Positions 12,175-44,420 of a stretch of DNA of 48,954 bases are shown here, piece after piece. The position numbers and the translations under genes are program-made. How positions within the stretch are numbered: position 1 is the stretch's first letter; each line of letters starts with the position of its first letter. The notes under the pieces are model-generated. The model saw only the letters and a program-made list of their open reading frames with translations, had not been told where the DNA came from and made no database searches. The DNA is from Eledone cirrhosa (taxonomy: Eukaryota), in NCBI GenBank assembly GCA_964016885.1, contig CAXHJY010000002.1:1-48954 (forward strand). Direction: 5' to 3'.

Positions 12175-12264
12175 CCCGGTTACAAAAGATGTCGTGATCA
12201 CGAAATGCCCTCCGATTGTGATACCAATTTCTGTAGATCTCATTCGGTCGAGGAAAAACGATAG
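12175..12264 (-). CDS. GRL-A exon 3 (LSFFLDRMRSTEIGITIGGHFVITTSFVTG; TM7a region)
   Basis: ttcag| 90 nt |gtaata, phase 0. Same length and motif as GRL-C exon 3 (L.mFL..L....GvsvGG..VI..S.V). Confidence 0.88.
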
Positions 12265-12303
12265 CTGAAGTATAAATAAATAATATATCATTACTAATAA
12301 TTA

Positions 12304-12492
12304 ATTGTTTCTACTTTTGGCACAAGGACAGCAATCACCCAGTGTATTACTGGTACTTTATTTTATCGACCCCGTAAGAATGAAAAGCAAAGTTAACCTC
12401 GGCGGGATTTGAACTCAGAATGGCAAGGGCCGTAACTCCATGCGTCAAAGCATGGCGTCCGACCCTCTACCGATACTGCCAACCCACCGCCG
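12304..12492 (-). mobile_element. SINE family 1
   Basis: Full-length match to the family consensus seen elsewhere in the window. Confidence 0.88.
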
Positions 12493-13143
12493 TGCAATAC
12501 TAATAATTAATGGCAGTATAAAGCGGAAGTGACAAATCATCAGAACCTCACAGACATTTTTTTATATGTAGACACTTTACTTTCTGAATATAAATGTTGC
12601 TATTTTTGATATTGACTTTATGATACGGTTGCCTATAAAATATGTTTAATGTGAGGACTGGGTCCGATGTAATCGATTAGATTCCAAACATGGCCAAATA
12701 TGTTCATATTTGGCCATGTTTTTAGCATATAATTTTATATCCTTGCGTCCAAATTGCGACGCAGTTGTATAACACCTTGCTGTGTGTGTGTGTGTGTGTG
12801 TGTGTGTGTGTGTGTGTGTGTGGAGCAGCTCTCTCGCTCTCTGTCTGTCTGTCTGTCTCTCTCTCTCTCTCTTGTGTGTGTGCAAATAATGTGTATATGC
12901 CTGATCTCTTCCTATTCTCATTGCTAAACTATGTGATGCTATATGTCTCGTCGGGATAAATGCGACGATAGTGGGTCTGGAATCCTTGTCCGACAATGTA
13001 TACGAGCGCGCGCGCGCACACACACACACACACACACACACACACACACACACACACACACACACACACACACACACACACACACACACACACACACACA
13101 CACACACACACACACACACACACACACACACACACACACATGG

Positions 13144-13928
13144 TGTGGGATGCTTTGCGGTAGGCCGTTTGAGCACTCGATGTTCTTACAGAGCAGAGTA
13201 TAATATCACATAAGAAACGGAGACTGAGTGTTGCGACGAATTAAAATTTATTAAGCATATTACAATCGTTCCTCTGGCGACCAGCTCGAGATGCGATGAT
13301 CAAACCTGACTCTGAAATCGCAAGTTCTTCAGACATGTCTCAATCCTTCGAAGCAGAGTTTCCAAATGTCCTGTTTATCCCACTGGCCTTCGCTCGCCAG
13401 CTTCTATCCTGCTCTTGTCGGTCGATGAATGGTCAAGAATTGTACACGTCATCGGTATTTCTGACCACTCATGGTCGTCTATTTTTCTCGTTCCATTCAT
13501 ATGTCACCTGTCAATCAAAGTTGGCCCTTTTAGCGGAATTACTGCCGTAGGAGGTAAGGGGTTGTGTGAGTGAAACGTCCGCGCACTGCCACAGCTGTTT
13601 CGGCCTGTAGACAGCCACACACGTATCCATGGTTGCAGATGTGTGTATGATTGTTGTGTGTGTATACGACCCCATATGTATTGCGCTTGGGCTCACCATG
13701 GATACGTGTGTGCTGGTAGGGCCATGTCGAGCGCAACGAGGGCTGGATCAGCAAAGTGATGAATGTCGATCCAAAGAGGCGGTAGAGGCCCAGGAAGCCC
13801 ATAAAGGACTTGGTCGGAAGGTGTCCGTCGGGATCAAGCTAAGCTTGGCCTGACCCAAGTGAGACAAGCGGACAGAAACACATGGAGCGGGGTGCTAAGG
13901 AGCGTTGTTAGGCAACACCCACCCCATA
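13144..13928 (-). mobile_element. Probable solo LTR
   Basis: GC-richer ~785-bp block with imperfect terminal inverted repeats (tgtgggatg ... caccccata) and a minus-strand AATAAA near 13250. No clear TSD. Confidence 0.45.
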
Positions 13929-14010
13929 CTTAGGGATTAATTGTGCCCTGCATAAACAAAAACTGGATGATGATATCATATTAAAAATATTAGAAATATC
14001 ATAGACTTAC

Positions 14011-14079
14011 TTTTATGGCAAATTCCTGTGGTAATGCCTGTATTGGTACAGCATATAGATGTTCTGCCAGCTGATGAAC
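14011..14079 (-). CDS. GRL-A exon 2 (VHQLAEHLYAVPIQALPQEFAIK)
   Basis: ttttctgctacgttag| 69 nt |gtaagt, phase 0. Same length as GRL-C exon 2 and homologous to it (IHGVVEYLYD...LK). Confidence 0.88.
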
Positions 14080-41045: not shown

Positions 41046-41114
41046 CTTAAGGTTTGTTTCGTTTGTCAAACCTTCAAAATTTGTATCGTACAGGTATTCA
41101 ACAACACCGTGGAT
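41046..41114 (-). CDS. GRL-C exon 2 (IHGVVEYLYDTNFEGLTNETNLK)
   Basis: tatgtatcatag| 69 nt |gtaagt, phase 0. Confidence 0.9.
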
Positions 41115-41257
41115 CTATGATACATAAATAAGTTGAAATATTATATATTTCATAGGAAATATTTAGCATAATATCATGGATACGTAGCTTAGTGGTTAGG
41201 GTATTGAGTTCGACTCTTAGACCGGGCCATGTGTTATGTCCATCAGCAAACCATTTT

Positions 41258-42387
41258 AATAACATTATTTCAGTCGTATTGCACCTTAAATATGTCAATA
41301 CAATTACAGGATAAAAACTATGATTTGTAGAGCTTATTTATTTAAAGTATATCAAGGTGTAATTATATTAAAAGTAAGCATTGCAAGCAAAAATACATTT
41401 TAAAAGAAAAAATATAATTTTACCTAAACAATTTTACCTATATTTTTGTATATATATATATATATATATATGTATATATATAAATGTATGTATAGTATAT
41501 TTGGCAATGTACTGTATGTTTAATTAAAAACATTTAGAAGACTATTCGCTATGAGTTTTAAAGTAGTGACTGTATCACTTAATTATTCTCAGAAAAAACA
41601 ACAGAGAGCGACCGACAGGCAGTCTGTTTCTCGCTTGTGAGTGTTTATCAAGACCACACACTCAGTTGCCTTTGCCGAGAATTATAGAGGCTGGATTCTT
41701 ATAGTATTCCAGTAATAATCAGGAGCTGATTATACAGAGCGATTGCAGGTCCAGCAAAAATTAGGTATTAGTAGTGGTCTTGATAAACGCTCACAAGCGA
41801 GAAACAGACTGTCTGTTGGCCACTCTCTCTTGTTATTTGCCGAGAATAAGTAAGTGACATAGTCACTACTTTAAAACTCATAGCGAATGGTCTTCTAGAT
41901 GTTTTTAATTAAACATACAGTACATTGCCAAATATACTATACATACATTCATGTATACATCGCTGTTTCAGAGCACCAATCCTAATATATATATATATAT
42001 ATATATATATATATATATATATATATATATATATATATGTGTGTATGTATGTAAAAGGTAAACAGAAATAACAACACAATCAGTACAGTTTATGGAAGGA
42101 ATATATTAGGTTAACGCTTGAAATAGCAGGAAGAGGGTCTTAACGTTTCGGACGCTAGTTCTTTATCAGAAGAAAGAATGAGAAATAAGATAGATTGAGA
42201 GCGGGTTGGAATTGGAAAAAATGTCTTTAGATAAAAATAACATATATATATATTTATTATAAGAACAGATTAAAGTTTAAGCAAAGAATCGTTGCTTTCA
42301 CCCTTTTAAGCTCTAAAAAATATAGTTTTTATCCTGTAACTGTATTGATCTATTTAAGGTGCAATATGGCTGAAATAATGTTATTTT
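41258..42387. repeat. Nested inverted repeats in GRL-C intron 1 (outer ~41258-41336/42307-42385; inner ~41483-41657/41774-41949)
   Basis: Reverse-complement matches read directly. The inner arms carry hammerhead motifs. Confidence 0.88.
41773..41824 (+). ncRNA. Hammerhead motif with a U3:A8 core (diverged inverted copy at 41608-41657, minus strand)
   Basis: agtggtc-TTGATAA-a-cgct(caca)agcg-a-GAAA-caga(ctg)tctg-TT-ggccact. All three stems pair. Confidence 0.68.
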
Positions 42388-42960
42388 AGTCTCTCTCTCT
42401 CTCTCTCTCTCTCCTCTCCTCTCCTCTCTCTCTCTCTCTCTCTCTCTCTCTCTCTCTCTCTCTCTCTCTCTCTCTCTCTCTCACTCACCCTCTCTGTGTG
42501 TATATATATATATATATATATATATATATGCAAAAGTTCTATTTAAAATTGTTGGGATACAATTGTTGGTATCCCTGAAATATGTATAATGAAATAGATA
42601 TGGTTTTATAAATATAGTTTCCATTTATTAATATCGTATATATATATATATATATATATATATATATATATTTGTGCACATAATTATAGTTATATCATTT
42701 CAGATTATATAATAATTTTGTTTAAATCTCATTAATTATTCCGTTAATATAATTATTTTCTTTGATCAAAATAGAAAATTAACCACAGTGCATTAAATAT
42801 AAATAGTCTTTGCATTAAGAATTTAGGGGGGTGCGGGCGCTTTTTCATCATGTAATGTGGGCTGTTTAGGAAATGATTAAATAAAAATTAAATAAATGGT
42901 TGAATAAAATGGTGTCCCCCTTAAAAAGTCAATATTGCAGAGTCAATATTTCTCCTTCAC

Positions 42961-43270
42961 TTTAGTGGTTAGACCGTTGGCTTGTAATCATGAGGCTGTG
43001 AGTTCGATTCTCGGACAGTTGATGCATTGTGTCCTTGAGAAGTCACTTTATTTCACGTTGCTCCAGATTACGCACTTGTAGAGATGAGTTGTGACGTCAC
43101 TGGTACCATGTTGTATCGGCCTTTCTCTTTCCCTTGGAGTACATTGGTGGCGTGGAGAGGGGAGACTACTATGCATGGGCAACTACTGGTATCCATAAAT
43201 AACCTTGCTCGGACTTGTGCCTCGTAGGGGAACTTTCTCGGCACAAATCCCATGGACATTTGTGACCGAG
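42961..43270 (+). mobile_element. SINE family 2
   Basis: tagtggttag...gagttcgattc...gtccttgagaag...tttatttcacgttgctccag. Confidence 0.75.
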
Positions 43271-43406
43271 GGGGGGGGGGGCGTGAGGGTATTTATCCTT
43301 TACATTTTAAAAGAATGTAATGGCTTTACTTCCGGTAAAAACAATGCTGGTTATTATCTTTTATAGATTATTTACAGAAGAATTATAGAAATGTTCTAAT
43401 ACTTAC

Positions 43407-44420
43407 ATTTTCATGTAGAGCCAATCCTTTATAAATTATTATACTGCATACCAGTAACGTTACTGGTAGTAAAATATATATACATACTAGTTCTGCTTCG
43501 AAAAAACCAGGATTAAAAAATACATATAAACAGGCACATATGCTTAGGATCATATTCATCATAATTGCAGCTATGTTATACTGTATAGTTGGGTTTGCAT
43601 GTTCCAATAAACTGCACATTTCCTCATGTTTAGTACAATAATACATAATCATTTCGTTTCGGTACATGCACTCAGCATTGAATTGTTTATTTGCCTCTGT
43701 ATTGAAAACTTCGTGGAATTTGTCTTTCAAAACGTCAAATTCTATAGTCAGATATTGAATTAAGAACCAACTAAAGTCGTATTGGTTTAAAATTTGCAAA
43801 ATAACCAATATGGATGTGAAGCAGTTGAAACAAAGTAACAAAGAAACAAAATCATTATTAGTATGAAGAGGGTAAAAAAATAGCTCGAAAATGTTATATT
43901 GATTGCCCCAAAATAATGGTAAAATAAGTGTCACAAGTGGAAAAATTACAGATATTAGCATAAGTTCGAATATATATTGAATCTTCTTGATTTTTATCAA
44001 ACTGGCCAGCTTAGCATCACAATTATCACACACACACAAAATTGTATGGTTCATAAAATTTTGTTTGACTTCGTTATATTGTTTGTTTCTATTAAATATT
44101 AAGATAGAAGTGAACCAATAGTAAAATTTCCATTGCATCACCATCAAAACAGCCACTGATTTGTTTGATTTCTTATTTGTTAATGCATGCAAAAAAAATA
44201 GGGCAGAACGCACGAAGTCAGCAAGCATGCAAATGAGACTCATCCAGTACAAAATACACTTGCACCTTTTTGTGTGACTTAATGTGGACCAAGCAAATAA
44301 TGAAGTTCTCACATTGAAGTTGGCTATGTTAAATCTCTCCCAAAATTTAAATATATCACTCAGCCTATTTCCAACGATATTCTCTCTAACTGCACCGAAA
44401 TTCTTATGATTGTCTGTCAT
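43407..44420 (-). CDS. GRL-C exon 1 (338 aa, TM1-TM6); spliced protein 411 aa
   Basis: ATG at 44420 (MTDNHKN). Multiple TM segments and the motif KHEEMCSLLEHAN. Ends GLALHEN|gtaagt at phase 0, the same position as in GRL-A/B. Confidence 0.9.

Follow-up and report, generated by a model that had tools for sequence, protein, structure and literature searches.

Tandem first exons and probably shared 3′ exons in gustatory-receptor-like loci of the octopod Eledone cirrhosa

Three first exons and two sets of 3′ exons in the window

The window analyzed here (48,954 nucleotides; Eledone cirrhosa assembly GCA_964016885.1, contig CAXHJY010000002.1, positions 1 to 48,954) is an entire unplaced contig, C29, of a 3.0-Gb genome. 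It carries three long first exons, GRL-A, GRL-B and GRL-C (A, B and C in the following), which together with their relatives elsewhere in the genome almost certainly belong to the gustatory-receptor-like (GRL) family of seven-transmembrane ion channels (7TMICs). Their layout, tandem first exons next to a shared set of 3′ exons, recurs in two further clusters and is the subject of this analysis; such arrays were not visible from the window alone. All exons listed in a previous sequence-only reading of this DNA lie on the minus strand (Table 1), and the donors given there for three long multi-transmembrane exons were borne out: The first exons of A, B and C are hydrophobic, start with ATG and end with an in-frame GTAAGT. 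Gene C is complete, with four exons, 411 residues and three phase-0 introns, and an AG acceptor-like site 13 nt upstream of the ATG of its first exon suggests an intron in the 5′ untranslated region. Exon 3 of C is flanked by satellites, namely 20-bp and 44-bp tandem arrays in 38517–40147 and 40284–40870, the former lying directly past the donor and the latter just before the acceptor.

Gene A comprises three phase-0 donors and two downstream exons. That matching 69-nt and 90-nt exons exist for two genes withstood a chance control in which open AG..GT candidates of the window were scored against the exons of C: After C itself, the 69-nt exon of A ranked first among 99 candidates (37 versus 3 for the next) and its 90-nt exon first among 87 (54 versus −2). 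The terminal exon with TYVIVIIQ is present and ends in a stop, but it belongs to C only. A terminal exon of A was found neither in the 12 kb below 12175, where the best candidate scored at most 7.0 as compared with 15–26 for true terminal exons, nor in three stretches near assembly gaps of a second assembly sequence, C13. The proposed deep divergence of A and C is supported by a global alignment of 401 and 411 amino acids with 90 identical residues. In a quick tree, the type of tree used throughout, the first exon of A forms a clade with three database proteins (99% support). Inside the third intron of A, an open frame of 1239 amino acids (2674–6393, minus strand; no Pfam family) lies between direct repeats at 2350–2670 and 6402–6721 that are 94% identical. 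It contains reverse-transcriptase-like and GIY-YIG-like motifs, which we take to be those of Penelope elements, and is likely a young Penelope-like retroelement.

GRL-B is an intact copy of the first coding exon of A, from which it differs by 22 nucleotides (16 nonsynonymous and 5 synonymous codons); three bases that distinguish the two are found no more than 45 nt from the donor (codons 334, 336 and 337). A sensitive search of the window found no second copy of A's exons 2 and 3 and no exons 2–4 of B's own. The underlying tandem unit of about 10–11 kb spans the whole region back to the 3′ end of C and ends 1.3 kb into the first intron of A; its breakpoints lie in interspersed repeats, and the self-BLAST blocks of the two copies are 95–99% identical. 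Because the duplication took in the first coding exon and its upstream region only, B reads as an alternative first exon or a stub and not as a paralogous gene. The earlier view that one gene had recently been re-duplicated is therefore not supported in that form; the birth-and-death pattern, with the broken copies described below, is. For B itself we favor the first of the two options: It is likely an alternative first exon for A's exons 2 and 3. Decayed pieces resembling long interspersed nuclear elements (LINEs) and Penelope elements lie upstream of A and B (19374–24023 and 30734–34172), the B copy lacking about 1.2 kb of the LINE.

Table 1. Positions of the GRL exons and related features, in the window unless C13 is named.
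Feature	Position	Strand	Description
GRL-C first coding exon	43407..44420	−	338 aa, predicted transmembrane segments S1–S6, phase-0 GTAAGT donor; 131/333 identical to XP_036361416.1 residues 1–334
GRL-C exon 2	41046..41114	−	69 nt, AG/GT ends, phase 0; 13/23 identical to XP_036361416.1 residues 335–357
GRL-C exon 3	40155..40244	−	90 nt, AG/GT ends, phase 0, predicted S7a and hairpin; 18/30 identical to XP_036361416.1 residues 358–387
GRL-C terminal exon	37805..37867	−	TYVIVIIQT (predicted pore helix S7b) and stop; 12/19 identical to XP_036361416.1 residues 388–406
GRL-A first coding exon	17435..18478	−	348 aa, phase-0 GTAAGT donor
GRL-A exon 2	14011..14079	−	69 nt, AG/GT ends, phase 0; likely common to A and B
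GRL-A exon 3	12175..12264	−	90 nt, AG/GT ends, phase 0; likely common to A and B
GRL-B	28795..29838	−	348 aa; intact copy of A's first coding exon, with donor
Tandem duplication, upstream copy	27444..37615		comprises intergenic DNA, the first exon and 1.3 kb of intronic sequence; other copy about 16092–27622
Shared 3′ set, exon 2	C13:13282184	+	plus-strand array
Shared 3′ set, exon 3	C13:13302335	+	plus-strand array
Shared 3′ set, exon 4	C13:13305276	+	plus-strand array

Membership in the gustatory receptor family

The assignment to the gustatory receptor (GR)/GRL family, which the sequence-only reading had also made, is carried by domain, fold and profile matches on the orthologue of C. The four exons of C tile the Octopus sinensis protein XP_036361416.1 end to end, and this protein exceeds the cut-off of PF08395 (7tm_7) with 31.7 versus 26.6 bits. 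Its Atlas model (predicted template modeling score 0.72) matches clusters of GRs and odorant receptors (ORs) in 9 of the 10 rows listed, with template modeling scores of 0.68–0.76 over 342–385 residues; the 7TMIC fold is thus seen in the predicted model of the C orthologue, whereas a single-sequence AlphaFold model of C's first exon was unusable (mean local confidence, pLDDT, of 38). A protein language-model search placed this first exon among odorant-receptor clusters (0.95). With an index-free profile search based on 19 first exons of the E. cirrhosa genome, 158 database proteins were retrieved at E≤0.001, including XP_036361416.1. Word-indexed protein searches returned 0 of 670 candidates for the first exon of C and 0 of 7771 for the 19-exon profile, which we ascribe to sensitivity because the index-free search did retrieve these proteins. 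A cephalopod-only profile of 17 sequences matched MhOR5 at E 6.9e-6 over S5–S7 and three Orco chains at E 0.02–0.04 among 5 hits, and in the MhOR5 alignment exons 2–4 fall on the end of S6 and on S7. We prefer this profile to a 117-row profile that reaches GR/OR structures down to E 1e-17, since the latter may include arthropod rows. Across the genome, PF08395 gave 28 matches, 13 of them over the cut-off; 12 of these 13 are exons of the clusters described here (7 on C13, 5 on C3) and one, on C24, contains stops (C24:12846144). Among the aligned first exons, 11 of 19 match 7tm_7 at E≤0.1. PF02949 gave 14 weak genome-wide matches, 3 of them on exons already counted. An open frame of 363 amino acids at C11:30207637 has a weak 7tm_6 match.

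Intron positions and the terminal motif serve as further criteria for this family (PMC9998090). Gene C has all three introns of phase 0 close to the C-terminus, presumably at positions homologous to those of the insect introns, and its terminal exon has the form TY-hhhhh-Q; most other terminal exons show a TY or SY form. Against the family assignment it has to be held that the window first exons alone do not pass in Pfam (A matches 7tm_6 at E 0.055, under the cut-off; B and C have no match), that the own-genome profile found no GR or OR in the PDB but chance matches only (best E 0.16), and that every terminal exon keeping the Q has T next and not F, gene F on C13 lacking even the Q. Because the motif ends in Q-T, the gate phenylalanine of insect GRs is absent. 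Outside insects, the TYhhhhhQF motif is only partly conserved (PMC9998090), and MhOR5 likewise departs at the position of the gate phenylalanine (PMC12635824). By analogy to solved GR and OR structures (PMC12635824), the proteins are predicted to form tetrameric ligand-gated cation channels. An identity as chemotactile receptors (CRs), the cephalopod proteins derived from nicotinic acetylcholine receptors (nAChRs), was rejected: All profile and structure matches are 7tm_6/7tm_7 proteins, and no pentameric Cys-loop fold was among them.

First-exon arrays on C13 and C3

Genome searches with the exons of the window led to a region of C13, of which a gap-free stretch of 436 kb was searched. Past genes E and F, each of which possesses a separate set of exons 2–4, the plus strand carries 16 first exons (13.020–13.282 Mb), 12 of them intact and 4 broken. 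The 12 intact copies are all of one type, termed D-type, are 84–97% identical and without exception retain the GTAAGT donor; of the D-type copies in the array, 12 of 14 are open and 2 of 14 are broken. According to splice-aware scoring, blastn and tblastn, just one set of exons 2, 3 and 4 lies after them (Table 1). The first exon nearest to this set lacks its 3′ third and its donor, and the shared exons themselves are intact, exons 3 and 4 being identical to O. sinensis in 28 of 30 and 16 of 16 residues, respectively, which supports the octopod origin suggested in the sequence-only reading. Because of the truncation of this nearest first exon, the 3′ exons have no usable partner but the distal copies. 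The array spans about 260 kb, with implied introns of 31–261 kb. At 13.367 Mb there is another gene, which has 3′ exons of its own. Since 200 bases or more upstream of the ATG were duplicated along with each unit, every exon could have its own promoter, as could B, whose unit reaches back to the 3′ end of C. In C, E and F, acceptor-like sites directly precede the ATG and point to an upstream exon that is untranslated, so that a first exon may be chosen either by promoter or as one of several internal exons. In the quick tree, the 12-copy D expansion forms a clade of its own with 100% support and no database member among the rows tested.

Several smaller observations concern this cluster. Some D copies have, directly past their donor, a 3′-end fragment of a different type of first exon along with a second donor-like site, and a D-type fragment lies at C13:13927444. 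A copy of the shared exon 3 at C3:362901825, which carries a stop and no donor, was considered as a retrocopy and rejected, since it is a DNA copy of 1.7 kb (96% identical) that includes introns. Assembly gaps at 12880971 and 13334371 flank the cluster; no overlap with the window contig was found. The window contig may belong in one of these two gaps, as the loci orthologous to gene C and to the shared set are numbered consecutively in O. sinensis.

On C3 (69.46–69.88 Mb) there are 9 intact and several broken first exons with three 3′ sets, the latter being the only matches in a genome-wide search with the C3 exon 3. At 69.46–69.70 Mb, the cluster is a large inverted duplication (95–99% identical), and exons 3–4 are copied again at 69.72–69.75 Mb. 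A C3-type first exon at C3:69065554 is cut by a short interspersed nuclear element, and the next 44 kb are free of 3′ exons. In total, we count at least 27 intact first exons (3 in the window, 15 on C13, 9 on C3) on at least 9 3′ sets (2, 4 and 3), whereby the tally of sets includes that of A without exon 4 and that of F with its Q-less terminal exon. No additional cluster came up when two distant database proteins served as genome queries. The layout of the insect loci Gr39a and BgerGr60, several first exons on one 3′ set, was thus encountered in B plus A, in the 12 intact exons on the gap-free C13 set and in the 9 intact exons on the three C3 sets.

The 12 intact D exons show an excess of amino-acid change, which is located in the transmembrane parts. 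In a codon model, omega = 1 was rejected (likelihood ratio test 18.9, p 1.4e-5), and parsimony yields 242 nonsynonymous versus 36 synonymous changes where neutrality would have 23–27% synonymous. Across six disjoint pairs, the proportion of nonsynonymous differences (pN) is 0.034–0.035 and that of synonymous differences (pS) 0.019–0.021 (p 0.024 and 0.001; with kappa 2, 0.035 versus 0.019, p 0.001). In the hydrophobic segments, pN is 0.043–0.045 versus a pS of 0.015–0.017; two loop segments show a pN lower than pS. This grouping of segments was made after the results were seen. No nonsense change occurred where 10–14 were expected, in a test biased by the selection of these 12 exons as intact, two other D-type copies being broken. 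It further speaks against a strong interpretation that the upstream non-coding divergence of 0.027 lies between pS and overall pN, that the codon results take no gene conversion into account, and that the ratio of nonsynonymous to synonymous rates (dN/dS) of A versus B, about 0.85, is based on few changes and uninformative. Between the types of the older C3 lineages, dN/dS is 0.4–0.65.

Probable splicing onto shared exons and its possible function

The arrangement most likely represents a mollusc version of the Gr39a/BgerGr60 design with a variable ligand-binding exon and shared pore exons. We consider it probable, albeit with considerable reservation, that tandem first exons are spliced one at a time onto a single shared 3′ set and that the products are tetrameric ligand-gated cation channels for chemical sensing. 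Taken for themselves, the parts differ in strength: Splicing onto shared exons is quite probable, the participation of B is somewhat more probable than its exclusion, and a chemosensory role is fairly probable. In solved GRs, the ligand pocket lies in S2–S6, S7a and cytosolic parts of S4–S6 form the anchor, and S7b lines the pore (PMC12635824). By comparison with these structures, the first exon would encode S1–S6, including the pocket, and the end of S6, S7a and S7b would come from the shared exons, so that a change of first exon would alter the pocket while keeping the pore and part of the assembly surface. Each first exon would thereby equip the constant module for assembly and pore with a new ligand specificity. 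Unequal crossing-over of units consisting of promoter and exon would generate new first exons, which would diversify under selection, and splicing would likely yield two dozen or more predicted ion channels.

Protein models from another octopod support this design. In the O. sinensis RefSeq locus LOC118764548, an orthologue of the C3 type, the protein models X1/X3, X4 and X5 join three first exons (pairwise 53%, 52% and 88% identical) to identical exons 2–3 with two alternative last exons. In LOC118764607, the orthologue of the C13 set, the protein models X1 and X3 have first exons that are identical in 63 of 138 positions and the same tail. The entries LOC118764606/607/608/548 (O. sinensis), LOC106880719 and A0A0L8FL56 (O. 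bimaculoides) and A0A812CSS2 (Sepia pharaonis) hold orthologous sequences with the same exon junctions, and isoforms with different first exons are already modeled there, but they are named 'uncharacterized' or 'Gustatory receptor' without study. The expectation that annotation would miss the family accordingly holds in part: The RefSeq models of O. sinensis and O. bimaculoides are called 'uncharacterized protein', whereas UniRef labels one O. bimaculoides fragment and the S. pharaonis protein 'Gustatory receptor'.

With respect to function, the splicing design might hold while the channels serve internal or non-chemical sensing, such as gut or blood nutrients, temperature or development, and not external taste or smell. 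GRLs are known from cnidarians, placozoans and other invertebrates, and a chemosensory role outside arthropods has not been shown (PMC6150509, PMC5850775), which weighs against our assignment of a chemosensory role; moreover, Gr28b senses heat and light, Gr43a internal fructose, and NvecGrl1 patterns embryos (PMC6175461, PMC5850775, PMC6150509). The developmental examples come from families of few genes, however, and a lineage-specific expansion with pseudogenes and diversifying change in the helices of the GR pocket (S2–S6, PMC12635824) fits a many-ligand repertoire, so that we regard non-taste functions as unlikely.

Slightly less probable still is that the family is real and the extra first exons (B and most of those on C13 and C3) are stubs of partial duplications, with about nine conventional genes at work. 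The units end in repeats and hold mobile elements, and several copies are broken. Other observations tell against shared-exon splicing itself: The implied C13 introns reach 261 kb; a 200-N gap interrupts two of the three arrays on C3; the terminal exon of A was not found, for which reason A and B may both be dead; and the joins of different first exons to one exon 2 come from RefSeq protein models. RNA junctions were seen for no E. cirrhosa locus. Of four sequencing runs over one C13 first exon, three extend over the exon as well as the intron and contain many variant letters, the fourth is too thin, and no joint appeared. Stubs, on the other hand, are hard to reconcile with 12 of 14 D-type copies that are open at 84–97% identity with an intact donor, with changes skewed to amino-acid replacement in transmembrane parts, with the broken state of the sole first exon adjoining the shared C13 set, and with the use of several first exons in the O. 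sinensis isoforms. An origin of B in the assembly process, with two alleles of A set one after the other, would concern the window pair only and is very improbable. In its favor, the contig is unplaced as a whole and the 95–99% identity of the units is inside the allelic range. Against it, the units run head to tail and their breakpoints fall into repeats, differences are denser in the exon than in the flanks (22/1044 versus 24/2156, Fisher p 0.038), and the same layout occurs elsewhere at far higher divergence.

The proposed splicing of variable first exons onto shared pore exons has close counterparts in insect Or and Gr loci. The cockroach Blattella germanica joins 13 first exons, Gr60a-m, to three shared exons (PMC6175461), and Drosophila Gr39a has alternatively spliced first exons (PMC2204066); these loci share with ours the tandem long first exons, three short shared exons, phase-0 introns and some pseudogenic first exons. 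The present loci differ in belonging to a mollusc, in the extent of the C13 array and in the Q-T motif. Isoforms of Gr28b are alternatively spliced as well, and molluscan GRLs were reportedly treated by Robertson in 2015. Gr39a is reported to be under purifying selection (PMC2204066), whereas in the C13 first exons dN exceeds dS. Non-arthropod GRLs (Nematostella Grl1-4, Trichoplax Grl1-3) have the same 7tm_7 fold family, the three 3′ phase-0 introns and the TY-hhhhh-Q motif, but number 3–4 genes per genome, one of them developmental, in contrast to the at least 27 intact first exons in three clusters found here. Cephalopod CRs likewise are ion channels that are clustered, expanded and under positive selection, and their number is comparable (26 in O. 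bimaculoides; PMC11526382, PMC9068888), yet they are pentameric, have shown ligands and are encoded by separate genes, whereas the 7TMICs described here are unrelated candidate receptors. The clustered protocadherins of vertebrates also combine variable first exons with constant 3′ exons in unrelated proteins; as cephalopod protocadherins are reported not to have this design (PMC9068888), the GRL loci would be a cephalopod case of it.

The accessible portions of reviews and cephalopod genome papers on chemotactile receptors, protocadherins and G protein-coupled receptors (PMC11526382, PMC6408891, PMC11886862, PMC11682238, PMC9068888) contain no description of GRL genes in cephalopods; PMC11886862 refers to 'gustatory receptors' of suckers, citing chemotactile-receptor papers. 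Mollusc and cephalopod terms are absent from the preprint 10.1101/2023.08.30.555482, and a full-text literature search, outside of which most subscription papers and supplements lie, identified no work that deals with GRLs of cephalopods or with spliced arrays of GRLs in animals other than arthropods. The family is known, and so is the design from insects; what we describe is their occurrence in an octopod, along with an expansion that is recent and diversifying, for which splicing and sensory function are inferred. A wider interpretation, which we put forward tentatively and hold to be somewhat less likely than not, is that octopods possess a second ionotropic chemoreceptor repertoire of the size of the CRs, in which one of many ligand-binding first exons, all diversifying rapidly, is spliced over up to 260 kb onto one shared pore module. 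It would be the first GR design of this kind outside arthropods found in our searches and a variable/constant-exon system in a cephalopod, in which each sensory cell might choose a single exon.

The 'taste by touch' of octopuses has so far been explained by the nAChR-derived CRs, and the at least 27 candidate channels could serve the olfactory organ, the lips or other ligand classes. Counting genes from annotation would capture only about a third of this repertoire, as the 27 first exons stand against 9 3′ sets. Provided that the splicing is true, the Gr39a-type design would either be older than the arthropod–mollusc split or be recurrent, owing to the position of the ancestral introns between the parts that encode ligand pocket and pore; moreover, all isoforms of an array would be readable from the shared exon 2. 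In O. sinensis as well as in O. bimaculoides, the RefSeq X2 isoform is devoid of the first 14 residues of exon 2, which suggests a conserved alternative acceptor.

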